Assembly (NCBI GenBank): GCA_048213135.1
Contig: PS015853.1
Span: forward strand, 1-37,164
Reading direction: 5' to 3'
Length of the DNA: 37,164 nucleotides
From: Reclinomonas americana ATCC 50394
Taxonomy: Eukaryota
This document shows positions 2,434 through 36,400 of the stretch, in pieces; the stretch's first letter is position 1, and every line of letters begins with the position of its first letter. A program made the translations under genes and the position numbers. The notes beneath the pieces were generated by a model that was given only the letters and a program-made list of their open reading frames with translations, did not search any database and was not told where the DNA came from.

Positions 2434-5400
2434 ATGGCAGCGGCGCTATTTGCGTCTTTGACATCATCCTCATCGTCATCGTCTTCCTCATTGCCGCCAC
2501 CACCGCCGCCGCCACCCACCGCGAGCATTGTCATTATTCCACCGGGAACGCCTCCATTATCCGCGGGATCATCATCGGGGGGATCATCATCATCGGTAAT
2601 GAGCAGTGATACGCCACCTCCGTCGCCGCCATCGCCACTGCCGCAGCCGCCGCAGCCGCAGCAGAGGCGAATGGCCACGTCATTGTTATCTGTCCCCACG
2701 GCCACGGCGGCGGCATCTGGGATTCCGCCGGTATTGTCTCCGAGGCGGACGCACTCGATTATGGTGGATGGGATGCTGTCGCCGGCGGGGTCGCCGGGAG
2801 CGCGATTGGCGCGGTTGAAGGAGCTGATTCAGGCGGAGGCGGCGAGGGAGGCGGAGGTGGTTCGAGTGCAGGTGGGTCGAGAGTGGGATGCAAAGTGGAT
2901 GGGATATTGACGGGATTGTGAGCTGACTCTCTCCTCTGTCTCTCTCCCTGCCTCCTTCTCGTTCTCTCCTTCCTTCCTTCTCGTTGTGTCTTCGTTCTCG
3001 TTCTCTCTGCCGTATCTCTCTTCCTCCATGTTCACTCTCCCTTCGTTCTCAAACACTCTCTCTCTTAGTTCTCATTCTCTGTCTTCCTCCTCGTTCTCTC
3101 TTCGTTCTCGTTCTCTCTCCTCCATGTTCGCTCTCTTTTCGTTCTCATTCACTCTCCATTCTTTCCACTCACCCTGCCAACGCGTTCTATCCCCTTCTCG
3201 TTCTCGTTATTCTCGTGCCTCCTTCCTTTACGTTCCCGCTCATCTCCTTCTGGTCTTCTCTGCATTATTATCGTTCACCCTCCATTCCTTCTCGTTTTCT
3301 CTTCGTTCTCGTGCACTCTGCCGCTTTCTCATTCTCTCTCCTTGCTTCTCGGTTGTACTCACTTCGCTCCGTCTCTCCTGCCTTCTCATTCATTCTTCCT
3401 TCCTTTTCGTGCTCATTCTCTTTGCTATCCATGGAGTTCGCAGCACACTCAAACCTGTGATGCACGAGAGAAGAAAAAATGCAGAAGAATGAGAACTTGA
3501 AGCTATCTGTCGATATCGATCGACGGTATGAAAGAGCATGAGAGGCGACTGAGCGCTGAGCCACCACCTCCACCTTGATCTCAATTTTTTTTGCACCCTC
3601 CCACATTCCTTCGTCTCACCTAGACTCTGTCATCTTCCACATTGGCGCTACCGTCATGTTGTCTTCTCTTCCCCTTCCCACCCTTCCCTTCCCACCCTTC
3701 CCCCTTCCCACCCTTCCCTTCCCACCCTTCCCCCTTTCCCCACCCTCCCCTTCCCACCCTTCCCCCTTCTTTCCTCTCACATCCTCTTCTCCCTTTATCG
3801 CAGCGCGAAATGCCCGCACTTGCCGCCGAACTCGGCAAACTCTCCCGCAAACTGCGCGAGTTCAAGGTCAAGATCTTCAACATTGACCGCAAGGTCAAGT
3901 TCTACGTCGGCATCCAGTCACCACTGGAGCAGCACAAGTACGAGGACTTTCTCGGCAACTTCTTCGAGACCGCTCACATGGACCAACACCCGCTTGGCGC
4001 GAGGCTAGAGGTGCGTGGCGCAGAGTGGATTGCACGGATTGACAAAGAGTAATGCTGAAAGAATCCGCCAGGCCTTTGTCAAGCTGTTGAATCTATGTCG
4101 ATGGTATCCCGAGTATCTGTGCCATGTGGTGGATTACGTACCGTTCCAGGAGCTGGATTCACTCGTCGCCACCACGTGCTCGTCGCTGTTTGGCAATTTC
4201 TACCAGCCAGGAGAGGAGTGGTTGTTGTTGAGATTTCTGCAGGTTCGATATCGGGGAAGTGGCAGGGTGTTGTGATACATGGTTCCTCTCCCCTCTCGCT
4301 CTCCCCTCTCGCTCTCCCCTCTCGCTCTCCCCTCTCGCTCTCCCCTCTCGCTCTCCCCTCTCGCTCTCCCCTCTCGCTCCCCCCTCTCGCTCCCCCCTCT
4401 CGCTCTCCCCCTCTCGCTCTCCCCTCTCACCTCACACACTTCCCGCCTCCGCAGAAACACGCCACCCACCCGCGCCGGCGCCTGCATCATGTTCGTTGTC
4501 GACTATTGCATCGACGAGGAAGTCAAGCCAAAGCTCGGCTGTTGCGTCTCCTTTCCTCTCTGCCTCTCTCCCCCCCCCCCCCCCTCCTCTCTCCTTGGCT
4601 CATTCCTTCTAGTGATCCACGACGCCGTCGGCATCACCGCCGAAACCATTCGGCAAGTGTGCAAAACCATTCCCGAGAAGCTCCTGCCGCAGTGGTTCAA
4701 GGACAAGTACAGCGATCGCTTCCTGACGCGGGCGGAGGTGTACTGCAATCGGTGCGGTCGGCTGCAGGGTGTCAACTTGGAGCATGTGGTGGCGGCGCAC
4801 AAGCAGATTGTGCAGTCGGATCGATTGTTGTTGCGTGGCTCGAAGGAAGGGAAAGGAGGAGAGCGAGTGCTTCTGACTCCCTGAGTGCGCACAGTGTGGA
4901 GCATCAGGACGAGGTGTATGCGGCGCTGGTGTACCTCAAGAGCAAGTACTCGCCATCTGTGGTCGTGTTTGACTTGGAAGGTTTGGTTGTCTTCAACGTG
5001 CATTGGTGTGGCGAGATGGTTNNNNNNNNNNNNNNNNNNNNNNNNNNNNNNNNNNNNNNNNNNNNNNNNNNNNNNNNNNNNNNNNNNNNNNNNNNNNNNN
5101 NNNNNNNNNNNNNNNNNNNNNNNNNNNNNNNNNNNNNNNNNNNNNNNNNNNNNNNNNNNNNNNNNNNNNNNNNNNNNNNNNNNNNNNNNNNNNNNNNNNN
5201 NNNNNNNNNNNNNNNNNNNNNNNNNNNNNNNNNNNNNNNNNNNNNNNNNNNNNNNNNNNNNNNNNNNNNNNNNNNNNNNNNNNNNNNNNNNNNNNNNNNN
5301 NNNNNNNNNNNNNNNNNNNNNNNNNNNNNNNNNNNNNNNNNNNNNNNNNNNNNNNNNNNNNNNNNNNNNNNNNNNNNNNNNNNNNNNNNNNNNNNNNNNN

Positions 5401-8400
5401 NNNNNNNNNNNNNNNNNNNNNNNNNNNNNNNNNNNNNNNNNNNNNNNNNNNNNNNNNNNNNNNNNNNNNNNNNNNNNNNNNNNNNNNNNNNNNNNNNNNN
5501 NNNNNNNNNNNNNNNNNNNNNNNNNNNNNNNNNNNNNNNNNNNNNNNNNNNNNNNNNNNNNNNNNNNNNNNNNNNNNNNNNNNNNNNNNNNNNNNNNNNN
5601 NNNNNNNNNNNNNNNNNNNNNNNNNNNNNNNNNNNNNNNNNNNNNNNNNNNNCTCTCCCCTCTCGCTCTCCCCTCTCGCTCTCCCCTCTCGCTCTCCCTC
5701 TCGCTCTCCCTCTCGCTCTCCCCTCTCGCTCTCCCCGTCTCGCTCTCCCCCTCTCGCTCTCCTCCGTCGCTCTTCCCCTTCCCCCATTTTCCTTCCCCTT
5801 CCCCTTCCTCCCCATTATCTCCCCTCCCTCCCCATTATCTCCCCTCCCTCCCCTTCCCTCACTTTCTCCATCACAGCGCGTGCTGGTCTTCGACTTTGCG
5901 AGGTGCACGGACACGTTGAATTTCCTGCGAGCGAACACCTACGGCACCAAGTTGCTGAGTGCATACACCAAGTTTCGTGCTGCGCAGTCGACACGGCATC
6001 GCTTGCTTTTTGCAGTACTAATTGTTCCTTGTACTTCCAGGCGCGGTGGCGGACGGGCGGTACTACGGCATGCTTTGCATGAAACCCTGTCGCGGTACAT
6101 TAATGACGATGATTCGGACTTGGAAATTGATCCGCTCAAGGTGTGTCTCACTACTCACTCTCCCCTTTCCTTGCTTTCCGTCGTGTCTCATCGACTCGCA
6201 GATCGCCAAGAGGTTAAACATGCACGCCGAACTCAACCGTGACCGCACCGAGTTGGCGCAGATTCGTGAAATTCGCTTTGTTATTGACGAGAGTTGCGCA
6301 TCTCCGCCTCCTCCAGTCATTCCTCTCTGCGCCTCACCCTTGCTCCTTTATCTGGCGCGCAGACACACCTCGCCTTGTATCATTATGTTCCGATGTGTTG
6401 GATGGCATCTTCTCCTCGCTGCCGGAGATGCCGCATGGCATTCGATGGCTATCGAAGCAGCTCGTACTGTTGCGTGGTGCTTTCTCTCTGTGTGAGAGTG
6501 GTTTCACCTTTTGGTCTCATGAATGAATGCGGGTGCAGAATGGCCAAGGAGCGGCAACCGGAACTTGACTTGGACAAGCAACGGATTTTGGTGGCAGGGT
6601 TTGTATTTCTAAGGTTTATCCTGCCGGCTGTTGTGGCACCCGAGACACTGGGAGTTGTTGATACGCCTGTGACGCCGGAGTATCGGAATGGATTGACGTT
6701 GGTGCGTGGGTTGCCAGAGAGAGAGAGAGGAGGGATAGGGAGAGGGAGAGAGACTGTGAGGTTTGATTGTCTCGACTTCGCATTCAAACTGTGTGCATAA
6801 TTGTGCATATTGTTGCGGCATGATTTTCACGCTCTGTTCGTTGGTATCTCTGCTCTCCCTTCTTTCGCTCTTGTCTTCTTCTCTCTGTCTCTGATTCCAT
6901 CTCTTTTGTATCATGTTGGAATCTCCTAGCTCTGTCTCTCTCGCTCCCTCTTTCACTTTGCAAGTCTATCTTTTGGTAGCTCTATTTTCGTCCTCTTTCT
7001 CTTTTTTTCTCTCCCTTGTCTTTTGCGCTTTTCACTTCAGTTTTTTACTTTGGCAAGTTATCGTGCTTGTAATTTTGCTCTCCTCTACCTCCTCTTTCTC
7101 CTCCTCTTTCTCCTCCTCTTCCACCTCCTTCTCTCTCTCTCTCCCCTTGTCTGTCACTTCAATTTAGAGTTGTTGTTGGCAACTATGCTCTCCTTCTCTG
7201 TCTTGCCGCACTTTCCCTCTCTCTCGCTCTGTGCGTCTTTCTCTTTGCATTCTCGTCTCTTTCTCGATGTTTGGAACGATCGTATTGGTCTCTCTCTCTC
7301 TCTCTCTCTCTCGCTGTGTTGTATCTTTTTCATCATTCCTGCACAGATTGTTAAAGTTTTTGAATCTCTCTTCTCCTTTTCTCTCCCCCTGCTCATCCCT
7401 CCTTTGCAGATCGTAAAAGTGCTGGAGAAGATGGCCACAGCGCTGCTGTTTGGACCAAAGGACCCGCACATGATGCCGCTGAACGAATTTCTGGAGGAGA
7501 AGAGACCTCTGCTGGTGGCATACGTGCAGGAGTTGATTGACGTCAGCGATCCGGACCCGCTGTTCATGGCAAGTCTCCTTCTTCATTCCGCTCTTTGCGC
7601 GTGCTGGAAGAAGTCTCACACTCGCTCTCTTGCCATCCAACAGAGCCCACTGGCAGACTCCGTGCCTTCCACCGTCACCATCACACCCAACGAACTCTTT
7701 ACGCTCCACCGTCAGTTTTTGGAAAACCTGCCCAAAGTGGTTCGTTTCTCTTCTCGTTTTATCTGGGCGGTGCAATCCGCCTTACCCCTCCTCCGTTCTT
7801 GCAGTTGGACGCCATGCATCTGGCACGGCAAGGCATGATCCGCGCCGATGGTCACGACGAAATGGAACTGATTGTCCGCGAGCTGGGTGCGGTGTCGCGC
7901 CTGCTGCCGCGTGAGGAGAACAAGTTCCTGTTGGTGGAGGTGCCGTCGTCCGTGACTGCTGGTCGGAGATTAGAGGTTTGTATCCGCTCCTGGTCGTCAT
8001 CTTCTTCTCGAAGCCGCTCACCGCCACCACCGCAGCCGCTGTCGCCGGAAACCATGCACACTCGCGATCCGAAAATCACTGCCGCCCTCGACGCGCTGCG
8101 ATTAGTGTTTCTGCAAGAGGATGGTGTGTCGCCGTACTTGTGTGCGTCGCTCACCGAGTGGCTGCAGGCCAAGAGCGAGGTGTGTGGCAAAAGGGTATTC
8201 AGCGATGTTTGTTCCTTTTCGAGCTCATTCGGTATCGGCAACAGATATGTTCGGATGATCGCATGTTGATGGAGTTGTCGGATGCGGTGGATCGACTGGA
8301 CGAGTTGCCACCGGCGTTCACGGAGGATCATTTTTTGATGTTGCTGCAGTTGTTGGAGAAGGTGAGGTGACCCAGGAAAGAGTGGGTAAAAGGGATGTGG

Positions 8401-10057
8401 AGGAATAGGCAGAGAGAAGAGACAGGCAGGCTGAGAAAAAGGGAGTGAGAGAGAGGGAGTGGAGTGTGCGCGAGAGAGACAGAATGAGATGGAATGTCAG
8501 CTTCTCTCTCTGTCAGAATGCTGACTTCAATTCGTGGCAGACTGGCAGAGGGCGTGTGAGTGTTAGAGAGAATGATTTAGAAGGATTGTCAGCGTTCTTA
8601 CTCTTTCTATATGTGCTGCTTCTGTTGTTTCCACCCGTGACAGACAGACAGAGGGCGTGAGAGAGAAAGAGAGACTGTGAGAGAATGAGAAGGGTTGTCG
8701 GCCTTCTAGTTGTGTTACTGTCTTGACAGCAAACAGACAGACAGAGTGAGAAAGATAGGAGGAGATTGTGCAAGAGAGTGAGAAGCAATGAGAGTGATTG
8801 TCAGCCTTTCGACGTGTTGCTCTCAGTGTTTTCACCTTGACAGAAAACGAGTTTGTGTGTGGGAGAGTATGAACGAGTAGGATTGTCATCCCTCTCATTC
8901 TTTCACTGTGTGCTGCTCTCCGGGTTATCACCCGCGACACACAGAAGATGCGAGAGCGAGAGAGAATGAGTGTGTGTGTGTTTCGTAGAGAGAGAGAGAG
9001 AGAGAAACAATGAGAACAATTGCCAACCTTTCTCTCTTTTCTCAGTAATTCCTGTGGCTCACTCTTTCCCTTTCTCTCCCCCTTTACCCTCACCAGGAGT
9101 ACAACAAGCGAGAGACCTACCGCGCCGCGCTGCTGGAGGACTACGGGCGCCTGCGCACCTCGGTCGAACAGCTGAGGAAAGAAATCATTGCGGCCATGGA
9201 GGAGCGCTTGGCGTACTCGGACTTTCTGTCGCAGGCCAAGCGGACGAGTTTCGAGCGGCGCGCCAAGATGAAGATGCAGAGCATGTCGGGCAGCATGAAG
9301 AAGCGGCGCAGTTTGGAGACGTCGGACCCGAGGAATTTGAAAAAGGGCAGCAAGAGGACGGCGAGTTTGCCGGATGTGTCGCTGGAACCGTTGCGTGAAA
9401 AGGGGGAAAGGGGCGGAAGGGAAAGATCTTTCCTTTGCCTTCATGGCCACCTTTCTCTCTCTCTCCCTTCCTTTCTCCGTCAGTTCACCCTCTTCTCTGT
9501 TGCATTCGACATGCTTCATTTCTCTGCACTCTGTGCGCTCTCTTGCACTCATTCATGTCTCTCTTGTCCTCTGTGTTCCTGTTTCTCCCTCCTTCTGGCA
9601 TCAGTCTCTGCTGTCTCCTTTTTCTCATTTCTCTTTACACCCATTGCGTTTTCTTCTCGTATCTCTTTCCCTTGTTTGCTTCCCTATCTGCTCTCACCCT
9701 TCCACCCTTCCCCCCTTCTCCCACCCTCACACCTCCATTTCCCTTCGTTGCAGTCCCCCCGGCACCGTCCTCGGCCCATACATCTTCACCCAGGAGGACC
9801 TGGCCGGCAAACGCCTGGTGGCCTCCTTCGACTCCAAGGCGGTCGGCGTGCCCGGCTGGTGTATCGAGTTCCGCTCGCAGTACGCCGGCATGATCGACGT
9901 GGTGTTCAAGGAGGGCGCCGGTCAGGAGACCGGCCGTGTGTACGTCGACATTGACACGCTGTTGGACGATTCGCTGTCGAGAGAGACGTTTCAGTGTGGC
10001 CCACTGGAGCTGCGCATCAAGTCGTTCCTGTCTCTCATCAACAAGATTTTAACATGA
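2434..10057 (+). CDS. Ras GTPase-activating protein, Gap1/Sar1/IQGAP-related type (RasGAP + RasGAP_C-like), ~884 aa. Exons 2434-2871, 3804-4010, 4072-4242, 5877-5971, 6041-6140, 6202-6292, 6363-6468, 6539-6701, 7410-7568, 7644-7739, 7805-7975, 8036-8179, 8245-8361, 9097-9389, 9754-10057
   Basis: All 14 introns are phase-consistent (13 GT-AG, 1 GC-AG). Motifs: arginine finger FLRANT, LEIDPLK, MPHGIRWLSKQL, signature GFVFLRFILPAVVAP, KDPHMMPLNEFL, ITPNELFTLH. Confidence 0.9.
4285..4427. repeat. 13-bp tandem repeat (CTCTCCCCTCTCG)n; the same repeat resumes after the gap at 5653-5760
   Basis: Read directly on both sides of the 4455-5021 insert and gap. Confidence 0.9.
4455..4980 (+). CDS. Fragment of an unrelated gene with TFIIB/cyclin-fold-like repeats inside RasGAP intron 3. 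Exons 4455-4540, 4613-4829, 4895-4980
   Basis: Three phase-consistent exons give NTPPTRAGACIMFVVDYCIDEEVKPKLGLIHDAVGITAETIRQVCKTIPEKLLP...DEVYAALVYLKSK, resembling the TFIIB repeat-2 pattern (SPxSxAAAAIYM...AGVADVTIRQSYRLI). It enters in phase 2, incompatible with the phase-0 RasGAP donor. Confidence 0.55.
5022..5652. other. Assembly gap
   Basis: N run. Confidence 0.99.
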
Positions 10058-11189: not shown

Positions 11190-11226
<37 letters not shown>

Positions 11227-11950: not shown

Positions 11951-14900
11951 ACAAGCAACCATCCATCACTTTCTCTGTCTGTCTCTCTCACTCTCTGTCT
12001 TGAGAGACATTTCAGTTGCCGCAAGCACGAGAGATGACGATGTGTGTGAGAGAGTGTCTCTGCTGCCTTGTCTGCATATGCGTGTGGACCCAGCTCACAA
12101 TCTTGATGCTAAGTCAGAGAAAGTAAGCTGAGAGAGTGTCTCTGCCTTCTCTTTTTCTTTGTGTGTGTTTGCGCCGATCACTGAACGAGAGACATCACGC
12201 TCACACGCGCTGACTCTCTCTTCCCTGCTGCTCGTTGCGCACAGCTCACTCAAATGCTCGATCAAACGTCGCCCGTGGAGCCCTCTCGCAAGCGCAAGCC
12301 ACCAGCTGCGCCAGCTGCATCCTCGCGAGTGACGCCTCCTCTCCCACCTCCGCCGCCACAGCCACCAGCCGATGTTCGCAGCCTGCTGCACAATGTTGCG
12401 TCTGTGTGCACCTCCTTTTGCCACAGCAGTAATCGATGCTGAGTGAGGGTGATTCTCTTCGCTCCTCTCTCTCGCGGCCAATCCAGCTCATGCGCAATCT
12501 ACTTGTTAGTTCAGAATGCAAGTCATCCTCTTTCTTCATCCTCCTCCTTCTTCTTCTTCTTCTTCTTCTTCTTTCGTTTTTCCGCATCTTCTTTGTCTTG
12601 TTTGTTGCGTTCATCAAATCTGACTCCTCTGCACTTTCTCTCCTCTTCCCCCTTCTCATCGTCCTCCTCCCTCCGTCCCTCCCTCCCTCCCTCCCCCCCT
12701 CCCTCCCTCCCTCTCCCTTCTCTTACTTTACCACTTGCAGGCCTCGGCCCGCCCATGCGTGGAAACCTTCCTCACCGAGGCCGGCATGTCGATGCTCATG
12801 TACACGGACGCCTTCCTGCGTGCCGGCTACGACACCCCACAAGTGCTGGCGGGACTCACGGAGCGCGACCTCACCACGGTGGGCATTGAGCTGCCGGGCC
12901 ACCGCAAGCTCCTGCTGCAGCACAGTCGGCGCATGCAGCAGCGCAATCGCGCCTCGGCGGCAGCGGCGCCCCCATCATCGTCTTCTTCCACGACGGGAAC
13001 GACTGGAAGGAAGCGCTCGCGATCGGCCAGCGAACGTGACGGTGGTGGTGTTGGCAGAAATGGGGAAGATGACGACGAGGCTTTGCTGATGGCCATGGCC
13101 ATGTCGGCGTCACTGGCGGCGCAGGAACAAGAGGAGGAGATGAGAAAGCAACAGGAGGCTCTCGAGTTGGAGCAGCTGTTGGCTGGAACGATTGAGGACA
13201 GCGGTGTGCATGAGCGGGAAAAGGACATGGATGAGGTGGAGGTGATGGTGATGGCAAAGACAGCGGGATTCGAGGAGGGCGCCATGCTGCCACCTCCCCC
13301 GCCGCCCGCTGCTGCTGCTGCTGCTGCTGGCATGTTGGCGCGACTGGCCAACGAACTGTTGGACATGGAGGAGAAGCAGCCGGTCACCACCTCGGTGACG
13401 ACAGTGTCTGCGACAGAGTCTGCGGTCGGCGCAAAGGTGGTCAGCCGACCAGCCATGCCGCCGAGTGCGCTGCAGCGGAAATCCTCGCGTACTACGCTGA
13501 CTCGCGTGCAGGAGGAGTTGGAGCCAATGACGGCAGTGGCGTGCGCCATGAGTCAGGCGGCGCGCGAGGCGAGTGCGCAGCGAGAACGACAGCGAGTGCG
13601 TGACTTTGTCGATTGGAGAGAGAGCTCGTTCTTGGCGCTGGTGGATTCGGTGCACCGGCTTGTCGATGAGTGGAATGCGGAGTTGGTGCAGCGTGTGACG
13701 GGGATGTGCGAGGAGTTGGATGGGGAGTTGTGGTGAGTTTTGGTACCAGGGGTTGTTGAATCAAGGAATACATGCGTGTCTACCGTTCTGCTGGCTGTTG
13801 CTCGCCCTCCTTTCCCTTTGCTGTTGCTCGCCCTCCTTTCCTTTTGCTGTTGCTCGTCCTCCTTTCCCTTTGCTGTTGCTCGCCCTCCTTTCCTTTTGCT
13901 GTTGCTCACCCTCCTTTCCCTTTTCCTCCTTTCCCTTTGCTATTGCTCACCCTCCCTTCCCATTGCTATTGCTCACCCTCCCTTCCCATTGCTGTTGCTC
14001 ATCCTCCTTTCCCTTTGCTGTTGCTCACCCTCCCTTCCCTTGCTGTTGCTCACCCTCCTTTCCCTTTGCTGTTGCTCATCCTCCTTTCCCTTCCTGTTGC
14101 TCGTCCTCCATTCCCTTTGCTGTTGCTCGCCCTCCCTTCCCTTTGCTGTTGCTCACCCTCCTTTCCCTTTGCTGTTGTTCACCCTCCTTTCCCTTTTCCT
14201 CCTGCTCACCCTCCCTTCCCTTTCCCTGCTGCTCACCCTCCCTTCCCTTTACATAGGGTCCAGCTGGTGCGCGACCACCGATTACTCCTGCACACCATCA
14301 GCGCGCAAGTGCGATCGTCGGTGCAAACCGCTGTGCCGTTGCCGCCACCCGAGGTGGTGGAAGCTTCCAGTGCCGCCGCCGCTGCCGCTGCGCTGAATCG
14401 GAGCATTCCGCCGCCGTCCACCCCGTCACCACCGCGCGTGCGGCAGGAATCCATGACCAGCACTCGTGTACAGAGCATGCCTGTTGTTGATGTACGTTCG
14501 CCTGCGCCCACTGGCGACACTGGTGAGGCGCATCCCCCCAAATCACCATTTCTTCATGCGTAATCTTATTCTCTCGTTTCTGCAATGCAGGCACTCAACT
14601 GTTCGAGTCACTCTTGAATCTGGCGTGTTCTCCGCCCGCACCATCAGAAAAGGTAACAGTGTCCTTTGTCACCGTTTGTTTCCGTCTCTCGTGAACCAAT
14701 TGTTGTATGGCAGCCGGACACCTGGGGCATCTCGCACGATCCACAGAGTCCACAATGCACTCCGCAGAGTGCCACAGAATCGCCAGCACTCGTCGTTCTT
14801 GACACTCCGACACCTCCACAACCTGCCGCGCCGCCTCCACCACCGCCACCACCGCGAGCAGTTGTTACCATCGATGACGAGGAGGAGGAGGAGGAGGATG

Positions 14901-16525
14901 TTGAGATGCTGGAGCTGGGCATCGGCAGTGACGATGACGACGATGAGGAGGAGGAGGAGCAGGATATGAATGAGGAGCGTGGACGAGGAAGCCGCTCGTC
15001 AACAGCACCTCCGCGGTCTTCGTCGGATTCACCACCGTTGTTTCCTGTCATCGCTCCTGCCGTCAAGAAGCCTCCAGCCGTCGCCGACTCAGCGGCACGG
15101 CGCAAGTCTCTGGTGGAGTTGTTGCAGAAGCAGACGGAGGCGGACTTGTCGGTTGCGTTGTCGCCATCACTTGCTCGCTGTATATGTTTTTCTGCCACAT
15201 TCTGCTTCTCTGTCTCGTCGTCTCTGTTGTCTGGTGTACCTCTCTGTCTCACTGTGCTGGTCTCTGTTGCATGCTGCACCTCTCTGCCTGGCAGTCTCTT
15301 ATATGGCCTTCTGACTCTGCGGTCTTTTTGCTTCTGCCATCTGTCTTTTACAATACCTCTGTCGCCCTTGATTTCTATCTGTAATTCGCCTCGTCTTCGC
15401 CGCGTTCGTTATCTCTCGTTCTGGTCGTATCTACGTGCGTGTCTGTGCAACCTCAGCTTCTCGATTATGACGCTCTCATAGTCTCAGTCGCTATCCCTTG
15501 CTCCCTGCTAATCTCTTCGCTGCCACGATCATTTATCTCTCTGTCTCTTCGTCTCAGTTGCCATCTTTGTGTCTCTGTCTCACGGTCCCTTTGTCTCTGT
15601 ATTTGGATTCTGTCAATCTCAATGTGTCTCTCTCATGTGCTCAAACAGAGACTGATGCAACGGCGTGGACTGCGGAGATACGGCTCATTCGCCGCCATGG
15701 TGAACGCACTGGCAGAATCGCTGATGGACTTTGAGGGTGATCCTGGTGAGTTGCCCTTGTGCTTGCATTTTCATACCTCGTTTCTTTTGTTCTCCTCGGT
15801 TCTTCGTCCACGTGCTGTCCTTGCAATCTTCTTGCCCTCGGTGTTGCCGTCCCACTGCATTCATTCTCTTTTGCGGAGTCTTGTCTCCAATTTTCCCTTT
15901 TTCTGTTCTCTGTGTCCTCAGTGTTGCCCCACTGCATTCATTCTCTTTTCTGCGCGACATCTCTTGCGAACCGCTCTTCTTATTACTCTTTCTCTTCCTT
16001 CGCATGCTCTCTCCCGTCACTCGCACCTGAAAGTCGATCACGAGAGCCGCAGTTGTTTAGCACCCCTCCTGTCTTCTGCTCCTCTTCCTCCCCCCCCACC
16101 CCCTTCCCTAATTCGCCCACAGCTCAACTCTTCGTCTCCATCGACGACCAACTCGCCTCCTCCGTCATGGCCGGCCTGCGCTCCATGGACCGCGTTCACG
16201 AATCCATTCTCCTCTTCAAGGTAATCCGCTCTGCATGCCAATCCCTTTTGCTGCTACTCTCCACTCACTCTCCCAACGACAGCCCCTCGAACTGCCGGAT
16301 GTGCGCCGCCGCCTGAAACGCGAGTGCGGCGTGCAATGTGAACCGAAGATCCTCGCACGCATTCTGCAGCAGGCCGGCGTGGCCTTTGTGTGGAGCAACA
16401 AGAGTGCAAAGCGGGGCAAGAAGGCTGCTGCTGCTGCCAAATCATCGCAAGACAGGCGCACCCCAGCGTCGCAACGCACGGTGGTGGAGGCTGACGACGA
16501 CGACCATGATGATGACTTTGAGTGA
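10890..16525 (+). CDS. SLX4: SLX4-like structure-specific endonuclease scaffold (UBZ finger, SAM, MLR-like motif, SAP, C-terminal Slx1-binding CCD), ~854 aa. Exons 10890-11108, 12245-12394, 12741-13732, 14257-14522, 14591-14652, 14714-15151, 15649-15745, 16123-16220, 16283-16525
   Basis: Phase-consistent model. CVVCGIDLSRRSLASRLSHVKTC (C2HC UBZ), ALLMAMAMSASL (MLR-like), TEADLSRLMQRRGLRRYGSFAAMVNAL (SAP), and HESILLFKPLELPDVRRRLKRECGVQCEPKILARILQQAGVAF (matches the SLX4 CCD pattern ILLYQPFEL...LLDFLDTHCITF). Confidence 0.82.
11285..11790. repeat. Degenerate ~110-127-bp minisatellite in SLX4 intron 1 with invariant core TTCGCGCCAACT x5
   Basis: Cores at 11294, 11421, 11545, 11664 and 11774. 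Confidence 0.85.
13790..14250. repeat. ~27-bp minisatellite (TGCTGTTGCTCACCCTCCTTTCCCTTT)n filling SLX4 intron 3
   Basis: More than 15 imperfect tandem copies. Confidence 0.9.
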
Positions 16526-20057: not shown

Positions 20058-20142
<85 letters not shown>

Positions 20143-23780: not shown

Positions 23781-24240
23781 GACGGGCACGCAGCAAAAAA
23801 TGAAACAAACATGCGATACATTTTACTTGGGGTCAGCACGTCTCCTGCAACAGGAAGATGAAGCGGATGGCAGTATCCGAGCTTGCACAAGTATCACGCG
23901 TTCTTGGGGTCTGCGTGCTGGTGGATTGACTGCTGCATATGCTCATGGACCAAATGGTGTCTCTTCCACATTTGCAGAACTCACATGCTCACCTCCCCTG
24001 AACATTCAAGCAACACATGCCTAGTTTCACTCTGGTGGCGTGGGTTTCACGGCGCCTTCTCCACGCTCTCAAAAAGCAAAACCTCATCCAAGCAGTGAAG
24101 CAAGATGCCTTCTTGTGGCCTGTAGCTGCAGCTGGTGGTCGACTACTGCAGCTGCAGGTGGTAGTCTATGCTGCAGATGACAAGTGCCTTCCCTTCCACG
24201 TTTGCAACAGTCTCCGTCCCACCTTTCCCTTCAGTCTCCC

Positions 24241-27200
24241 TTACTCCGCTGTTGTTTGTGGGTCGACTGCTGCTGCTGCTGCTGCTGCTGGTGGTGCAAC
24301 AGGCGGCGCCTCTTCCACACTTGCAGAAGCAGCCGCACCGGCAAGCGTCGCCGCCGCAGCAGCCTTGATCTCCTCCAACTTCTCCTTCTTCTCGCGACGC
24401 TCCTGTCGCTTCGCCTCTCGTTCCGCATGCCGTTGATCCCGCTCCGCATGCCGCTTCTCTCGCTCAACTCGCTGCTGCGCCTTGTCGATCTTGTGCTGCG
24501 CACGCTGCCGCAGTGCCTCGGCCTTGGCCAGCACGCTTTTCCCGTCGGCGCCAGCCGACGCAAGGGCATCGACGGCCTCGGTGAGCGCACGCACCGCATC
24601 CTCGTGACGCCCGGCCTTGAGGAGCGTCTTGCCGATGCGAACGCGCAGCAGCACAGTTCTACAACGACGAGTGAGACACTACACACCACAACATGGAAAT
24701 GAAAAATGCACACAGCACGCAACTGCGGGTGTTGTGCACCGAGGGCACGCGTTCGCCTCTTGTGCGCATCCTCGTACAGCGGCAACACGCTGGTGGCGTC
24801 GCCCGCCGTCAGCTTTCGCGTGGCGTTGCACAGGTCGAGCAGCACGTCGATCGTGGTGGCATGATCGGCCCCCAACACGCGCTCGCGCGCCGCCAGGCAC
24901 TGCTTGAGTGGTGCCACGGCGGCCTCAAACTGACCCAGTTGGAGGAGGGTGGTGCCGAGGTTGCGCAGCGAGGCCAGGTAGTCGGAGTTGTCGCGACCGA
25001 GGCGTTGCTGTGAGGGGGGAGGGAGAGGGAGAGAGGAGGAAAGGGAGTGAGAGAGGGCACGGTGATGTCAAGCTCAGAATCGACTTCACTGCTTCTCTCG
25101 CTCATCTCTGTGTCTTGTGCTCACCACTCACTCGCTATACATTCCTTCTTTCCCATCGCGCATTCAGTTCCACTTGTTTCTCACTTTTCTCTTCTCTCAC
25201 ATCCATCTTTTGTCTTTTGCTCACCACTCACCCGCGGTGCACTCTTTCTTTCTCACTACACACTACTTCCCACTTTCCTCTCTCTCTCTCCTTCATTCAC
25301 CTTTCTGTGACGTTACCACTCACTTGCTGGACGCTCTTTCATTTTCACTGCACACTCTGTTCCACTTTCCCTTCTCTCTCTCTCTATCTCTCTCTCTCTC
25401 TCTCCCCCCTTGATTCGCCCACTCTGTCCTATGGTTGCAGCTCGCCTGCAGTGCACTCTTTCTTTCTCACAGTGCAGTCCGTTCCACTTTCCTCTTCCTC
25501 CTTCATCCACCTTACTGTCAACTCCTTCCCAATCATTCTTTCTTTCTCACCGCACACTCCGTTTTCTCACTTTCTCCATCTCTCGCTCATAAATCTTCTC
25601 GCCTTTCGCCTCTCACCCGCACTATTTCCATTCTCACTGCACACTCCAATTCACTAGATTTCTTTCCACTCATTTCTCACTCTTCTCGTTCCCCCCTTCT
25701 CTCTCTCGCCTCTCCCTGATTCTCGAACGCAACTTCGGCCAGCGGAACCACTCGTTGAAGCAGAGCCAGTGCATCGGCATGTCGTTGAACTGAAATGTAC
25801 GCCATTGAAAGGTTGTTCATCAGCGCGAGAGCCTGCCAAAGATAAAAAGTGAATACAGTAGTGTGAAACAAGTCGACATCTGTCTCGTAACCTCCGGATC
25901 CGAGATCGTATCGCCGACAGAGGACGACATTGCGCGCCACGATTCCTCGTACACCGGAATCGCTTGGTCCATGCGACCGAGACCACACAGCGATACAGCC
26001 AACGCATGCAGAGTGCTATGCACGAAGCAGACGCATTGAGAAAGACGATGACAAATTGGTGAGAGCAGATAGCAAGAAAAGACGATCAGGAAACAGAGCA
26101 GCAAGGATGTAAAAGATGAGGTAATGAAAGCGATGCCAAGCTAGACGAGAGTGAACTGAAAACCGACGGATAGACAGACGAACATCAAGAGTTTCGCAGA
26201 TGTCGCACACTCTCCTCGCACATATCAACGGCTCAAGGGTTAACGATCATGAAAGTGCAAAGGGGGCATAGAATGAAGGTAGCGGAGAGTGTGCGAGATA
26301 ATACTATTGTTGCAATCAATCTTGCCACACAAAACAAGAAGACCAGAGTGGGGGCATAGGAGGCATGCAGACAAGGGCATGTAATAAACATGAACAAAAA
26401 GAGCCACTGCTGCACTCGATCATACCACATCAAAGAAGAATATAAGAGTGGGTCACAGGGGGGAAGATAGTTAGAAATGCGAACAACAACTCTGACACCA
26501 GAGTGCAAACAACACACTACTTTTCCTCTCCACCATCGCCGCACCTCAACGTATTCCTGTGCGTCGCTCCCAGTGCCGCCCTCTGCGCCGTCACGCACTT
26601 GGAGAGAATGCTCACACTCTCCTCGTACTGATTCAGCGCCTGCAGCACCTCGCCCAGATTGTGCATGGCCCACAGACTCGTGAGTTCCGTCGGCGTCGCC
26701 GCCAGCGCCTCCACACACGCACGGAACATGGGAAGAGCGTCCTCTAGCCGACCGGCGGCACGATGACACGCCGCCAAGCAGTTGCGCGTCTTGGCAGTGT
26801 CGGCGTGCTGCGCTACCGAATCAGTGCACACATTCGTTGCCCCTCACTGTCCAGGCAGGCACAAACCTGAGCACCGAGTCGCTCCTCCCGCTCCTGCAGC
26901 ACCGCCGACAAGTGCGCCTGCGCCTCGGCCACCAGATCGTCGTGTGGCTTGCCTGGCGGCAGCAGTCGTGCTCTCGACAGCAGCACCGAGCCGAGATTGT
27001 GCCGTACGCTGAGCAACTGCAGTTGCACGCGAGCATCCGTCGGTGCACTGCCGATCGCCGCCATGGTGTCGCGCAGCAGCTTTTCGGCCTCGGCGAGGGC
27101 GTCGGTGAGCTCCAGCGCCACGGCCAGATTGTTCTTCACCGACAACACGTCTTCGGAGAGCGGGTCGTGGTCGGCGGCAGCCGTCAGTGCCGAGAGGCAT

Positions 27201-29009
27201 GTTTCCAGGATTGGTCGCGCCTCGGAGTGCAGGTCCAGGAGCTGCAAGAAGCGAGAAGCGAGAGAGAAGGAAAGGACGAGGTAAATTCAACAAGGCTGAG
27301 ACCGCAAGGAACACATTCAGTCTACCAGGTGCCGTATCTCATTCGACGGTGCCCATTACCTATCACTGCAACTCCCACTTCTTCGCAATTACTTTCTCAT
27401 CTCTATCACACTTGCCACTCTGCACAGAGTGCACTCGTGGCCGGCACTCAAGCAACTCAGTCGCAGTCTCAGCCGTAACAGCACAGCTCGAGTGCTATCA
27501 CAGTAATCTCTGTTGCCATTGAGATTATAGTAACGCAAGAGAACGAGTGGACATGTGGAAGAATGATGCTGAATGAGTGTGAGTGACAATCACGGCAGGC
27601 CGCGACCCCACCACATTCCCCCCTCCTCTCACCGCCTTCGAGCCGCGTCCACTTGACACGACTGAGGCAGCGGCCCACATCCTGTGCCAGATCAATGCAC
27701 GCAAACTGCAGCGACTGCGTTACGTGCCGCAAGTGCAGGCAAGCGAAACCTCACACATTCATGTGCTCGTTCACTCTCTCAGCGATTACACCTCACTTCT
27801 CCTACACCCTGTTTTCTTATGCTTCAGTCTCTCCTCCACTCTCTCCTGCTCCACCGATCGTCTTGTGCGCCCTTCGATTCGCTAAGCCTTGATCTTGCTC
27901 GCTGTCGGCTCTCACTCTGTTATCCTTTCCCTTTCCCAATACACATTATCCTTCACCCTTCCTTTGCTGTCCTCTTCCTCTCTCCACTCCACCACCCTCT
28001 TTCCTTTGCCTATCCCGTTCCCTCCCCTTTCCCTCTCCCTTTCCTTTCGCCCCCATTCACCTGCAGAGGTCGCTCAATCTGATCTCGTCCGCTCTCTCTC
28101 CCACTTCCCATAATCCCCCTTTCCCTTCCTCCCTCTCACCTGCAGGGCAACTCCAAGCTGCCTCAGCGTCTCGATGCTGGCCCTCCCTTGCAGCATCTCC
28201 TCCAGCTGCCGCACCTCGGACAACATTTGCCGCGCCTCTCGATTGGCCCCGCGCCGCAACAAACACGTGGCTAGACCGCGTCGCAGCCGGCACGAATCCG
28301 GGTGCTCGGCGCCCAGCTGCGTATCAGCCGCCTGCAACGCACTGCGGCACAGCTCCTCGGCTTGCGTATATTGCTGCGACGAAATAGATTGAACATCTCT
28401 CTCTCCCTCCCCGCCCCCTCTCCTTCCACGTCATACCTTCTCCTCGATGAGTGCCGACAGCAGTGTAGACTGGCAATGTACAATCTCCTCGACATTGACA
28501 CGCGGACCCTTGGCGGCCGAACTCAGAGTGTCTTTCGACAGCACCTCCGCCTGCTCCACTTGTCCGCGGTCGAGAAGCAGCACCGCAAGATTGTTGCGCA
28601 ATCGTGTCATCAGTGTCTCGTCCGGTGCCTCCAGCGCCACTGCCTCGCGATAAAACACCTCCGCCTCGTCCAGCTGCTTGCGCGCATGCAGCGTCAGTCC
28701 AAGAGAGCTCTTGATGGTGGCCAGTTGCACCACGTCGACACCCGCGGCCGCCGGCATACGCTGCAACAGCACGAGGCACTCGCGAAATCCCTTCTCCGCC
28801 TCCTCCAACAGACCCAACTGGTACTGGCACCACGCGATGCGATTGCGGCAAATCACCGAACGTGCGTCGTCGGTGCCGGCCAGCGACTCGATCAGCAGTG
28901 CCAGTGAGGCGCTGTAGTGCAAGATGGCGCGACGGTGGTCGCCACCGATCTGTGGTTCGGCAGAGAGGAAAGGGCGATAGTGACAGATGAGTTGCACGAA
29001 GAAATCGAT

Positions 29010-29040
<31 letters not shown>

Positions 29041-29262
29041 GAGAGAGAGAACAGATAAAGGCAGACGGATACACCCTGAAAGATGAGAGATATGGCGATG
29101 TCGAAATCGAAAAATGGGTGAAGGACACAGACATGTCGAGAGACAGAGAGCGACAGACATACAGACACGATAGTATCACAGAAACAGATTCACAGACCGG
29201 CAAACACAAGGACAGACAGACACGAAGAGACAGAAAAAGAAGAAGACAGACAGAAGCCAGAA

Positions 29263-29311
<49 letters not shown>

Positions 29312-32300
29312 TGGAGAGACAGACAAAGGCAGACACTCATACAGACAAACTCACAGACAGACAGACACACAGACAAGCCATGCAGCAGCAGCTCGAAGTC
29401 TGCGAACAGAGATGCAGGGCACTTGCCTCCAACACACCCACCTCACACAACCACCCGCGCTCCCTCAGCAACACCCATCGCGTCTTATTGGCAGTCGCAC
29501 GCAACGGCGGCGGCATACGTGCCACTGCATCGGTGGCGCTGAGACGCTGAATGGCCACTCGACACTGAGACTCCATGTCGACGGCGCGCGTACGATAAAT
29601 GGCTGGATGCAGGCGTGCGAGCGTCGTAAACGCCCGCAGTGTGTCGGTCCACGGCTTGATCTCCAGCGCGCGCGACCGTGAACGAATCAGCGACCGCCAC
29701 AGGCCGAGCACCGCCGGCAACATGGTCGCTCGTCGTGCCCATTGCGAATCGTCGCTCAATCCGGTCTTTCCAATCCACCGCACCCACTCAATGGCCTGTG
29801 ATGCTGCACGTACCGCCAGCGTCTCCACCAACGTGGGAAGCTCACGGGCCAGCACCGCTGCGAGCGTGGGCGAGAGTGAGAATACCGGAACGACCGGCGA
29901 GCGTCGCGGATTGCCATCGTCCTCCACCGCACCCGACGCGGCCAGTCGACTCCACTCGGCCTCGGCGGAGAGGCACACGGCTCGGCGACGCGTCACCAGC
30001 TGTACCGATTCAAACACTTCCAGGCGCTGCAGGATGGTTGGTCAGAAAGCGAGGCGTGACATCAGCGACGTGTGGGGCAGAGTTCGCACCTTTTCCACAA
30101 CATCAGCGGGTGGCAGAGGCGGCGGCAGTGGCACATTGGCCTCCAGCGGCGGCACGTCCGTCAGTGCATCCGTGGCCGGGATCAACGACATCACCTCGAG
30201 CAACACTCGCAGCGACGCGAAGCCGAGGGCGCGTGTCACCACCGCCAGCGCAATGCATAACCGACGGTCCAGCGGCGCGAAAATGGCCATGGCAAAGCGC
30301 AGTGCCTCGTCCGTGTCACCCGTGCGCAGCCAGGCAAGGTGTTCCGGTTGCGGCTCGGGGTGGTCTTCCAGATGCGAGAGGAGGGCGCTGCAAAAGAGAG
30401 GAAATGAGAGGTCCTCTCTCTCTCTCGCGTTCTCACGCATTCTCATCACCTTGCCACCACGGCCAGCCGAGGTGCATTGCGCTGCGCCGGCACGCACAAC
30501 GTGTCGACCACATCCGGAGTGATTCGGGAACCGCGCACACACTTGACACAGAATTCGCGACAGTCGGCCTCGTCCAGACCCGCGTCCAAGGCGCGACTCA
30601 TCACTGGGCAGGCGGCGCGCGGTCGCAGTTCGTCGGCCAAACCCACCGGACCAGTGACGACAAAAAGCGGTGCCATGACCGCCGATGATTCCTGCGCTCC
30701 CCAAGCGGGTACTACGAGATGAGCACCCCGCGGCAGTACATGGTCTCTCACACGTGGCGGCGTCAGCACGCACCTTGCCGGGTGTGATAAAGGCGGCGCG
30801 CGGGACGAGTGCCACCAGCTGCTCGACGGAGCACGCATTCAGGTACACCACAATGCGTCGCTTCTGCTCATCGTCGCCACCGCTGGCCGAGGCCTGCAGA
30901 TACAGCTCCGAGGCGGCGGCACCCACCAAGGCCTGTGCTTGCGGCACGTCACGCAGTCGCTGCAGTTTGCGTGCGTTGATCTGGCACAGGATGAGGGCGG
31001 CAGCCTCGGCCGTGTCGAGTGGACGCGGCTCAAAGGCGGTGGGAGGAGGGGGGAATGTGGTGGGGTCGCTGATGGGGAAAGAGTGAAAAAGGAAGATGTG
31101 GACGGATGGAGTCAGCCAGATGCGACTCACAAGAATGGATCGGCAGCCGGCACGGGTTCGGGCGCACTAGGGGCGGCTGTGCCAACAGGTGGTGAATGGC
31201 GAGGATGGCAAGCGGTGACGATAAGGATTTCAAATACAAACCAGGTTCTGGTGGTGGCTCTGTGATAGCGTGTGAGTCACATGAAGTGAATGGACTCATC
31301 CACACGACAACTCACCGACGATAGCTGGTGGCGCCTCTTCGCCACTTCCCGATCCTGCTTACAAGGAGGAGAATTAATCAGCGACGAGGAGAAGTCGTCA
31401 GTGTGGACGTGACATGTGCTCACCAGATGCTTCGCCTTCGACGGCTGTTGCAGATGCTGCTTCAACGGCGACAAAGTGAAGTGAGCCACAAGGGATGATG
31501 CGAGACAGCGTATGCATTTTACCTGTTGCCTCCGCGTCACCTGCAGGGGTGAAAGGTAAGCAGTGGCACAGAAGACCTCACTAAAGCTGTGAACTCAATG
31601 CAGAGGGAGGGCGAATGAGAGAACCTAACAGCCAGACGAAGAAGTTGAATGACGAGGAGAGGGATGCCAAGATGAGAGGCACTCCTTGTTTCTTCTCCCC
31701 TTCCGGCGTCTTTTCTTTCAGCCTCTCCTTCTTCATCTGATTGCTAGTTTCTCTCACCCTGTCCACTCCACTCACAGGCATTTCCCCCCCTTCCTCTCCT
31801 TCTCAATTCCTCCTTCTTCGTCTGGCTGTTAGTTTCTCTTTCATGCTCTCTCTTCTCCACTCGTCACTTGTCTTCCCGTCTTCCCCCTGTTCCCGTCTAC
31901 TTTATTCCTTCTTCGTCTGGCTGCATGTCCTTCCTCTCTCTTGCACTCACTTGTGTTCTCCCCGTCGTCCCCCTTTCCGCCTTCTTCTTTGTTCCTCCCC
32001 CCTTTCTTCTCCCCATCTCCACTCACTTGTCTCCTCCTCCTTCCTCCCTCTTGCACTCACTTGTGTTCTCCCCGTTGTCCCCCTTTCCGCCTTCTTCGTT
32101 TTCTCCCTCCCCTTTCTTCTCCCCATCTCCACTCACTTGTCTCCTCCTCCTTCGTCTCTCTTGCACTCACTTGTGTTCTCCCCGTTGTCCCCCTTTCCGC
32201 CTTCTTCTTTTTCTCCCTCCCCCTTTCTTCTCCCCATCCCCACTCACTTGTCTCCTCCTCCTGCTTCACCACCTTCTTCGCCTGCTGCTGCGGTGGACCC

Positions 32301-32637: not shown

Positions 32638-32711
<74 letters not shown>

Positions 32712-33464: not shown

Positions 33465-36400
33465 TCACCACACCTGCACGCCACAGTCAGTACATCGCCA
33501 AAACACATACCGGCAGACTGACGACGCAACTCCCATGGCCACCAACAAATCCGTGGAGATGAAATCGAACTCGAAGCACACACTGAAGAAGGCAAGCGTG
33601 ACAGCCTTCAGCGGCTCGTTGATCACTGCACAGGCGGAGTCAGCAATCAAGGTGACGACACGAACACAGCAAGACCCACTCACATGCATCCTCCACCACA
33701 CTGTGCGGCAGAACGAGAGTGAAGACACACAAACGTGAGTCAAACACGTCAGTGAGGACATGAAAAACGAAGAGAATGAACTCACCCCCATGCAGTCTGT
33801 CGGTAAACCTGTGTGACATCACCGAGTGAGTGGCAAAGAAACCGCACCAGCCAGCACAAGGCACGTGCACGCAACAGATCCCTGAACCTCGTTCAGCACC
33901 AGTTGCCCGGCGGTGATAAGTGCCATGTAGGCAAAGAAGAGTGCCAGAAGGATGCACAACAGGTAGTTCCTGCAAGTTTGAAGGAAGCGGTGGTGAGAAG
34001 CGTGAAGGTGTTCGATGAAAAAGAAAGCAAAACACACCAGTACACCAAGTAGTACGGGATATTGCTGGTCTTGAAGCGCAGCTTGACACGCTGCCACCAG
34101 CTCAGTGTCCTCTGCATGTCGAGTTCCTCGCGAATTGTGCGTTCGCGGTATCGTTGCAAAAGTGTGTCGGTGGTGGCACTATAGTGGAGGGAAAGGAATG
34201 AGCAAAGAAGAGAGTGATTGACCGAGAGAGAAGAGCGGGAAGGCATCGATTGCGGTGAGGAAGCATTGGCAGTGAGAGCGCCGAGCCGGTCTCCTTGTTC
34301 TCCTCACATAACCGTTCCTCTTCATGTATCTCTATGGTCTGCTCCTCCATTCTCTTTGCCCTCCTTGATGCGTTCATCGTCTTCTACTCTCATCCTCTGC
34401 CTCTTCGTGCTTTTCGTTCCACAAATTCGTATTTTTGTTCAACCTCTCTTTTCTCTACTTCCGTCTCTTTCTGTTCGATTCTATCCTTCGTCCGCCTCTC
34501 GTTGTTCTACTCCTCCAGCTCCTCTGCAGCTTCATTGACATCCCGCTCCACTTTGGCTTCTCCCAACGGCCCTACTCCTTTTATCACCTTCCTCAAACGG
34601 CCATACTCCTGTCATCGCATTCTCCCTTCGTCGCCTTCTCCCCTCATCCTCTTCTACTTCGTCCCTTCTCCCTTCGTCCCTTCTCCCTTCGTCCCCTTCA
34701 ATCACGTTCCCCTTCTCCCAGATTCAACTGCCCCCACCCCAGCATCTCCCTTTATCCTCTTCTCCCGCCCTGCCCGTCTCCCTCCATCCCCTTCCCTACA
34801 CGCAACTGCCTCCAATGTTTCCGATCCGTGGTCGGTGCATCGCCGACCAGATCGACAAATGCCACCTTCAAATCACGGTTCCCCTCCTGCGCCATACATC
34901 AGCATTAGCGTGATGCAAGTACCCTCCTGGCCCTCAAGCCAGTCGATGAAAGACGCAACCATGGACGGCACTGGCGCCACTTGCGTCGATCCGTCGCCCC
35001 CTTGCACATTCGGAGCCTGCAGATCGGCATTCACAGCCAGCTGCGCAATCGAGAGGCACAGGAAGGACAAGTCAGCAGATAAATCCTCAGATGCGCATCG
35101 CCATTCCACGCACCATGGACGACTTGGTGGCGAGATTCGGAGACGGCGGTGCCGTACTCCTCGTTGCCTCCAACACCGCAATGTCAATGTTGGTGCGTGA
35201 CGACTGCATTGCACAATTCAGTGGGCGAGTGATCATCGCGATAATACAAAACCGTCGTTCGGCATTCGCTCACCGCCGACGCATGACTCGGTCGCGAGCC
35301 ATCGGAGCCGTGAGACAGCCGTTCGGCCGTGGAGCTCTGCTCGGATACGGTAAGCGAAGGAATAACAACACTGGAATCATGTGGCAACGACCGACGTACC
35401 GACTGTCCTGTACTCTCCAGCGTGGCGTCGGCGTCGATCATTTCCTGCAGTTGGGTGAACCAGTGAATGAGTGAAATCGACTCTTTGTCGACTGCTCGCC
35501 GCACCGTCTCTCTCTCTCACACACACACATACGCTCAAGCTCTCTGTAAATCAACTCTCTTACTCGCATGCTCACTACCATTTCTAACCCTCTCACGATT
35601 GTCTGTCACTTTCTCACTCTCTGTCACTCCTTCCCTCTCACGCGCTCTCCTCCATTTTCTCAACCTCTCGCACGCTCTCCGCCACGTTCTCACTCTCTCA
35701 CACGCTCTCTCACAGTTCTTCTCTTCTTTCACATTCTGTTACTCTCTCTCCGACTCCCTCCCATCATCACCTTCTCCCTTCTCACTCTCCTTCCTCTCTT
35801 TCTCCTTTTTCCTATCCCTTCCCTTTTCTCTCTTGCACACTCTCCCGTCCCCTTCTTTTCTTCTCTCACTCCCTCTCTCTCTCTCTCTCCCGCGCCTCTC
35901 TCTCCTTCTCCCTCTCTCCCACTCCCTTCCTCTTCCTCTTCCTCTTCCTCTTCCCCTCTTCCCCTTCCCATCCCCATCCCCATCCCCATTCCATCCCCTT
36001 CCCCCTTCCCCTTCTCCTTCCCCTTCTCCCTCCCCTATTTCCTCCCCTTCCCCTTTCCTCCCGTTCTCCCCCCACTCACCCTAAACATGGCCCGCCCATC
36101 ACCCGCCGTCTGCGGACGGAAACTCGCCGACGTTGGTCGTGAGCGCACCACAGACGAAGGACGCGCTCCTTGCATGGCCAGCGCCGAAGCCACGGCCGCC
36201 GTAGCCATGACGTGATCCACGGGCATCTGACCCGCCTCCTGATGCTCAATGTACCGATCGACGATGCGATCGCCTTCGGCGTCACCCTCGTCCTCGTCCA
36301 CGCCCAGCCCCAAATCGTGACTGCTCTGATGTGCCGCCGTGATGGCCGCCGTGGCGTGAATCACTTGGAACATGCTCTTCACATCGTGTTCCATGGTTCG

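Follow-up and report, generated by a model that had tools for sequence, protein, structure and literature searches.

A frequent second class of 5' splice sites, GTTGCGT, in a 37-kb stretch of the Reclinomonas americana genome

How is an intron recognised when its 5' splice site looks like an ordinary one displaced by a single base? This question is raised by a stretch of genomic DNA from Reclinomonas americana ATCC 50394 (contig PS015853.1, positions 1 to 37,164; hereafter the window), in which introns beginning with the heptamer GTTGCGT are interspersed with introns that have ordinary donors. The window is 37,164 bases long, has a G+C content of about 55% and contains runs of N at 1211-1478 and 5022-5652. 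We rebuilt six gene models in it by hand reading: all frame-compatible GT/GC...AG pairs were enumerated, and the spliced frames were checked for openness. In place of the roughly 69 introns counted in an earlier sequence-only reading of the same DNA, the rebuilt models give 59 introns in total, with three weaker regions (1-2600, 10100-12250 and 31460-33460) left outside both models and counts. Every reading frame in the six models is uninterrupted.

GTTGCG is the commonest donor hexamer in the six models. It opens 15 of the 59 introns, or 13 of 57 when the doubtful sites 36956 and 33530 are set aside; the whole window holds 18 copies of the hexamer on the plus strand and 16 on the minus strand. 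All 14 GTTGCG donors listed by the sequence-only reading are present on the strands assigned to them, as are the variants GTTGTGT (18618), GTTACG (25891) and GTTTCGT (5972). To these we add a putative GTTGCGT donor at 36956, GTTGTGA at 4269 and GTTTCGT at 17264. We define the wider displaced class by T at +3, G at +6 and the lack of G at +5, i.e. as GTTNNG without G at +5. It comprises 20 of the 59 introns: 15 GTTGCG donors and five of the GTTGTG, GTTTCG or GTTACG type. G stands at +4 in 17 of these 20 donors and C at +5 in 18. The remainder consists of 38 other GT donors (34 ordinary ones and four with GTT in the normal register) and a single GC donor. Two classes of 5' splice site therefore coexist within the same genes, and 25-34% of the donors in the window are displaced.

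The GTTGCGT class is confirmed as real, distinct and frequent, and the case for it is slightly stronger than the sequence-only reading put it. If the position frequencies of the 58 GT donors were independent, 1.1 GTTGCG donors would be expected, and 15 are seen (Poisson p ~1e-12); for GTTGCGT the figures are 0.5 and 13. Independent position frequencies thus do not explain the motif. T at +3 is coupled to the loss of G at +5, which is missing from 20 of the 24 donors with T at +3 versus 5 of the 34 other GT donors (p = 2e-7). Only 3 of 20 displaced donors have G at -1, compared with 35 of the 38 other GT donors (p = 5e-9). This bears out the earlier remark that most ordinary donors carry this base and the displaced ones mostly do not; the count of 12 among the 14 listed sites without it also proved correct, the exceptions being 15152 and 34959. 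Counted on the sense strand across all six genes (14.7 kb of exon and 14.4 kb of intron), GTTGCG has 24 copies, comprising 15 donors, five exonic and four intronic copies, and 13 of the 17 sense-strand copies of GTTGCGT serve as donors. GTTGCG has the highest rate of donor use among the hexamers; GTGAGT is used at 8 of 18 copies and GTGCGT at 5 of 18. The four intronic copies lie at 6812, 12604 and 22131 (plus strand) and at 19822 (minus strand), those at 12604 and 22131 reading GTTGCGT; these four may go unused, or may be the donors of small exons missed by the models. A donor-blind gene finder, in which all GT are scored alike, recovered 9 of the 20 displaced and 16 of the 34 ordinary donors. 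Although this finder is weak, it recovers both classes alike, so coding and frame evidence backs both equally.

Beyond the donor, the introns of the two classes resemble each other. All acceptors of the 59 introns, 58 with GT and one with GC, are CAG or TAG. A CTNAY motif 10-45 nucleotides (nt) upstream of the acceptor is present in 18 of 20 displaced and 27 of 34 ordinary introns, and the distance of this branch-like motif to the acceptor does not differ between the classes. The pyrimidine fraction is 0.72 in displaced and 0.71 in ordinary introns, and the lengths are alike, with a short mode of 57-99 nt and a long tail. Judged by these sequence features, the displaced-class introns appear to be ordinary U2-type GT-AG introns, whose removal restores the frame and a protein that matches its homologues. 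An all-against-all blastn comparison of the 59 introns returned only CT/GA low-complexity matches and nothing class-specific past +7. Since nothing but CT/GA microsatellites is shared past +7, the class is not a family of inserted elements. A transposon-derived intron family (introners) was likewise considered and rejected, there being no similarity along the introns. The sole GC-AG intron (7569-7643, plus strand) is 75 nt long, has the donor G|GCAAGT and is in frame; its retention also keeps the frame.

Protein homology could be brought to bear on the junctions of a RasGAP/IQGAP-like gene (2671..10051, plus strand). Its model has 16 introns and consists of two parts of 345 and 613 amino acids (aa) flanking the assembly gap at 5022-5652. 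The frames are open, Pfam RasGAP matches fall on three exons, and the product aligns with RasGAP homologues; the displaced class accounts for seven of the donors in this gene. The spliced model was compared in an alignment with eight RasGAP homologues, some complete and some partial. At the GTTGCGC donor 6293..6299 (phase 1, A at -1) the alignment runs gap-free over junction 6292/6363, and the split codon yields the N of a conserved E-N-T. The GTTGCGT donor 6469..6475 (phase 2, T at -1) gives a junction, 6468/6539, that is gap-free against six of the eight homologues; here positions 141 and 145 of the Pfam RasGAP profile lie four codons apart, unbroken. The junction of the GTTTCGT donor 5972..5978 (phase 2) falls within a conserved RasGAP motif. 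Over this junction, 5971/6041, the model exceeds the seven homologues aligned there by one residue, which fixes the junction to within one residue. The donor GTTGCGT at 4541..4547 (phase 1, T at -1) is the sole in-phase GT; we rate its support as medium because the upstream 86-nt exon has a weak coding signal. For GTTGCGT at 4830..4836 (phase 2, T at -1) there are in-phase alternatives at 4827 (GTTGTTG, a tandem site) and 4815 (GTCGGA). GTTGCGT at 9390..9396 (phase 2, C at -1) is backed by the frame to the last exon and was chosen by the donor-blind finder. GTTGTGA at 4269..4275 is a provisional pick that keeps the whole open frame of its exon, one of five in-phase GT donors for acceptor 4454 (4218, 4224, 4227, 4269 and 4272).

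A phmmer search with exon 6540-6701 of this gene against 1.84 billion representative proteins gave 22 matches. The best of the 22, P0001 (74 aa), is 70% identical, begins at the start of the exon and reads past its end into V-C-L-L. Because it reads past the exon end, this relative has a GT-N-TG-Y donor where GTGCGT stands at 6702 here. Searches with the same exon against longer proteins, and with two exon-plus-read-through frames, yielded no match.

In a TPR gene on the minus strand (24234..31459; 15 modelled introns, 1288 aa open, 5' end provisional, Pfam TPR_10/TPR_12) the repeats provide a ruler for the three displaced donors 25891, 25733 and 24723. The intron with the donor GTTGCGT at 24717..24723 (phase 2, A at -1) cuts a repeat whose spacing, with G at +22 and A at +27, is exactly that of three other repeats; the in-phase alternatives would add one or four residues. 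The repeat spacing thus fixes this junction exactly. For GTTGCGT at 25727..25733 (phase 0, A at -1) the frame is joined by the TPR period, which measures 44 residues over the junction versus 42-44 elsewhere. GTTACGA at 25885..25891 (phase 0, G at -1) belongs to the sole donor/acceptor pairing near its junction, and widening the search by 30 nt in the upstream direction brought in a single in-phase GT, GTCGGC at 25918. The TPR periodicity fixes 25733 and 25891 to within about two residues only.

Elsewhere the reading frame is the guide. A SAM-domain gene (12254..16525, plus strand; seven introns, 778 aa, uninterrupted, Pfam SAM_1/SAM_2) has two GTTGCGT donors, both in phase 0 and both placed by frame. 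At 12395..12401 (T at -1) the in-phase alternatives 12374 and 12404 remain, and the site at 15152..15158 (G at -1) was chosen by the donor-blind finder. On the minus strand, a gene of unknown family (16590..21194; nine introns, 623 aa) has the donors GTTGCGC at 19156..19162 (phase 0, A at -1), GTTGTGT at 18612..18618 (phase 1) and GTTTCGT at 17258..17264, all placed by frame, the last also being chosen by the donor-blind finder. The donor 19162 had been marked as ambiguous and is now settled, as the 623-aa frame is uninterrupted only with this site, and the neighbouring GTGAGA at 19152 gives stops. A second minus-strand gene of unknown family (33465..36967; 11 introns, 422 aa, uninterrupted), whose long reading frames have no Pfam match, contains five displaced donors, all GTTGCGT. 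The one at 34953..34959 (phase 0, G at -1) is required for a frame change, the one at 34800..34806 (phase 2, A at -1) is the sole in-phase GT, and the one at 33869..33875 (phase 0, T at -1) keeps the frame across three short exons. A putative donor at 36950..36956 follows an 11-nt first coding exon; its phase fits acceptor 36663, but it has many in-phase alternatives and is weakly supported. The possible donor at 33524..33530 would open a 57-nt in-frame intron with a stop directly after it, and here the ambiguity noted earlier stands, as retention or the use of GTATGT at 33510 also leaves an open end. The claim that each of the 14 listed donors keeps the flanking exons in frame holds, with 33530 ambiguous. 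At most other displaced sites, the in-phase alternatives lack both the -1 G and the +5 G. The sixth model is a two-exon gene with one intron (532 aa).

What, then, is the relation between the two donor classes? Ordinary donors read AG/GTGAGT, GTGCGT or GTGTGT, with G at -1 and +5, and 7 of the 34 have GTGCG. Displaced donors have a near-invariant /GTTGCGT with G at +6, amounting to about 13 bits over seven intron bases. The four GTT donors in the normal register, GTTCGT at 7740 and GTTTGT at 7976 (plus strand) and GTTTGT at 31241 and 26866 (minus strand), all carry G at -1 and +5, which indicates that T at +3 is tolerated in ordinary donors. Formally, A|GTTGCGT equals AG|GTGCGT with the first intron G turned to T and the cleavage one base upstream. 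The earlier description of GTTGCGT as the local GTGCGT plus one T is correct in this formal sense of a displacement by one base, but it cannot be extended to any local donor plus T. In the ordinary GTG-N-G donors, N is A in 13, C in seven, T in four and G in two cases, whereas in the displaced GTTG-N-G donors it is C in 15 and T in two (p = 1e-4); with A absent, none of the 17 is a GTTGAG donor. The displaced class is hence one specific heptamer. Its -1 bases (A8 T7 G3 C2) resemble the ordinary profile at -2 (A20 T9 C3 G2). We infer from these sequence patterns that the displaced class may be read out of register.

To relate the two classes to pairing with U1 small nuclear RNA (snRNA), we used RNAduplex, with bulges and shifts allowed, and the textbook 5' end of U1 given in PMC4856993. 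The mean energies were -7.7 kcal/mol for ordinary donors, -6.7 kcal/mol for the four in-register GTT donors, -1.6 kcal/mol for displaced donors and -2.3 kcal/mol for 1762 unused GT sites on the same strands. Textbook U1 discriminates ordinary donors from unused GT with an area under the curve (AUC) of 0.97, and displaced donors with an AUC of 0.44. The sequence-only reading had offered standard U1 in the shifted or bulged register known from mammals as one possible reader, next to a variant U1/U6 or a dedicated factor. As the displaced sites pair no better than unused GT in any register, standard U1 is not enough, and the earlier interpretation is supported in part. Scanning 16 variants of U1 positions 5-6, we found G at position 5 to be the best compromise: a U1 with ACGUAC reaches an AUC of 0.92 for ordinary and 0.77 for displaced donors, and one with ACGCAC pairs with the displaced class at -7.1 kcal/mol. 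G at position 5 would also explain the requirement for C at +5. An Rfam scan at gathering thresholds gave no matches, i.e. no U1, U6 or other snRNA gene lies within the window.

The explanation that we favour, tentatively and at somewhat less than an even chance, is that ordinary U2-type GT-AG introns carry two coexisting 5' splice-site classes in the same genes, the displaced one being read by a U1 other than the textbook form. The displaced class would represent the AG/GTGCGT signal one base off, its first G standing at the place of the usual -1 G and its T replacing the usual first G. Since the textbook U1 5' end pairs usefully in no register, the reader is presumably a different one. One candidate is the organism's own U1, if its 5' end has changed so that G faces the C of GCG, a change reported for Mastigamoeba; another is an additional U1 variant that serves the displaced class alone. 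Cleavage would then be set at the only GU by later steps (U6/U5). In our view, the displaced class would be most economically explained by a U1 that has changed, by a second U1 or by some other reader. The more specific form, a major spliceosome with two side-by-side 5' readers such as two U1 snRNAs, one for AG/GTRNGT and one for displaced /GTTGCGT, serving interleaved introns, seems rather unlikely to us.

Several points weigh against the favoured explanation. The textbook U1 5' end used for the pairing energies may not be that of the organism. The best single U1 variant separates displaced donors from unused GT only moderately, with an AUC of 0.77-0.79. On the exon side, a hand calculation gave the displaced class a log-likelihood of about -26 under the shifted profile versus about -28 under a uniform one, so that the absence of any exon signal fits as well. 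Only a reader with G opposite +5 would account for the lack of GTTGAG donors. Thecamonas and Mamiellales prefer C at +4 and, according to the text of 10.1101/2022.06.08.495308, have kept a standard U1. All junctions were read from genomic DNA, in 37 kb, by a curator who knew the claim while making the models. The donor-blind finder, which finds under half of either class, serves as a control only.

The case of Thecamonas and Mamiellales counts at the same time for the simpler view that proteins help standard U1 to read the displaced sites through the shifted or bulged register of mammals. In its favour, the motif is formally GTGCGT plus one T, and the lack of G at +5 and -1 matches the defining traits of human shifted-register sites as given in PMC4856993. 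Nevertheless, we regard this view as unlikely, given that displaced donors pair at -1.6 kcal/mol and unused GT sites at -2.3 kcal/mol, that A at +5, which would pair better with standard U1, is seen in 0 of 17 GTTG-N-G donors, and that human alternative registers account for about 1-2% of sites (PMC4856993) compared with 25-34% here. The missing pairing is what would be expected if the heptamer were bound by a dedicated protein or recognised without U1, through U6/U5 directly or another RNA, and so are the ~13 bits packed into seven intron bases with no exon-side signal. No candidate for such a reader was seen within the window, however, and the one-base relation to GTGCGT would become a coincidence; we consider this quite unlikely. 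A rigid intron-side motif with no exon consensus is also a trait of U12-type donors, which might point to a minor-spliceosome-like second system with its own divergent donor motif. U12-type donors are of the rigid RTATCCTT kind and are accompanied by a rigid branch site near the acceptor. GTTGCGT is unlike such a donor, and the branch-like motif, its distance to the acceptor, the pyrimidine tract and the acceptor are alike in both classes, which makes a system of this sort very improbable.

Two further readings would remove the displaced donors altogether. The true introns could be of the GC-AG type and start 3 nt further on (GTT|GCGT), in frame and at the cost of one extra residue. GC does follow 3 nt downstream at every GTTGCG site, always in phase, and a clear GC-AG intron exists at 7569. 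Comparing the GC and GT readings at 6293, 6469 and 24723, we found that the GC reading puts two other residues in place of the conserved N of E-N-T at the first site and adds one residue at the other two, where the GT reading gives the exact spacing of the homologues or repeats. Moreover, the one sure GC donor is GCAAGT with G at -1, unlike GCGTNN, and the GC-AG reading is hard to credit. Alternatively, the class might be a product of the modelling itself, or the remains of an intron family inserted recently. The models are hand-made from genomic sequence, and 36956 and 33530 are doubtful. Yet the uninterrupted frames are long, four junctions are checked by homology or repeat spacing, and 4541 and 34806 have no other in-phase GT; as for an inserted family, the blastn comparison of introns revealed only low-complexity matches. 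We hold both variants to be most improbable.

How does the displaced class compare with known systems? In humans, shifted, bulged and asymmetric-loop registers together make up about 1-2% of donors, as stated by Tan et al. 2016 (PMC4856993). The human shifted or bulged sites described there share with the displaced class an extra base after GU, the lack of G at +5, a consensus one base downstream and cleavage at GU. They differ in pairing well with standard U1 in the alternative register, whereas the GTTGCGT class has no useful pairing, and in their ~1-2% share, set against one fixed heptamer at 25-34% of the donors in the window. In Entamoeba, by the account in the text of Roy and Bowser (10.1101/2022.06.08.495308), a near-universal GUUUGU(U) donor occurs in 88-90% of introns and U1 has changed to match. 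The likeness lies in an atypical donor with U at +3 and a preference reaching +7. The Entamoeba motif, however, is single, in register with G at +5 and found in an intron-poor setting; here two classes occur in intron-rich genes and the atypical one is displaced. With 20 displaced, 38 other GT and one GC donor, the window does not have one near-universal atypical donor. The same text reports GUGCGC donors and a U1 with ACGUAC for Mastigamoeba balamuthi, so that Entamoeba and Mastigamoeba provide precedents for U1 5' ends that change with atypical donors. Mastigamoeba, Thecamonas and Mamiellales resemble the ordinary class described here in the frequent C at +4, and G at U1 position 5 fits best in our scan; the text of 10.1101/2022.06.08.495308 describes no second displaced class in them, its figures and sequence logos lying outside this comparison. 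In the copepod Eurytemora affinis, GA/GG donors are found in ~12% of introns according to PMC5714493. As here, a minority donor type is frequent enough to spoil gene prediction; the copepod donors, however, depart from GT itself, while those described here retain GT and differ in the register downstream of it. Literature searches by motif and topic, covering mostly titles and abstracts, where an organism-specific report may be missed, found no description of a GUUGCGU donor class; matches to the motif string were primers, aptamers and microRNAs only.

If the displaced class extends genome-wide, a quarter to a third of the introns would have donors that standard splice-site models rate as non-functional, and automatic gene predictions for the lineage would be systematically wrong at the affected exons. 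Displaced-register recognition would then, if the favoured explanation is true, have a natural case in which it is a mainstream mode instead of a 1-2% oddity. Such a case would offer a way to test what determines the position of cleavage if the initial recognition step is displaced, and whether the 5' end of U1 can diversify within one genome.

Some further features of the window deserve mention. The SAM-domain gene and the convergent minus-strand gene have their stops ~65 nt apart, at 16525 (plus strand) and 16590, a distance at which the two 3' untranslated regions must either meet or overlap. An exon on the plus strand at 10890-11110, outside the models, starts with ATG, ends at a GTGAGTGG donor and encodes a short Cys/His motif resembling a zinc finger. 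The TPR gene contains a 139-nt inverted repeat (27602-27740 versus 30931-31069, 91% complementary): the start of one of its exons, together with the last base of the preceding intron, recurs reversed inside an 898-nt intron of the same gene. Tandem arrays fill long introns and spacers, at 13794-14250, 4286-4428 and 5653-5779, 11413-11766, 31928-32262 and 37011-37118. The array in the SAM-gene intron is composed of 26/52-nt units, a CT-rich 13-nt unit is found on either side of the assembly gap, and the other arrays have units of ~120 nt and ~110 nt or consist of (AC)54.

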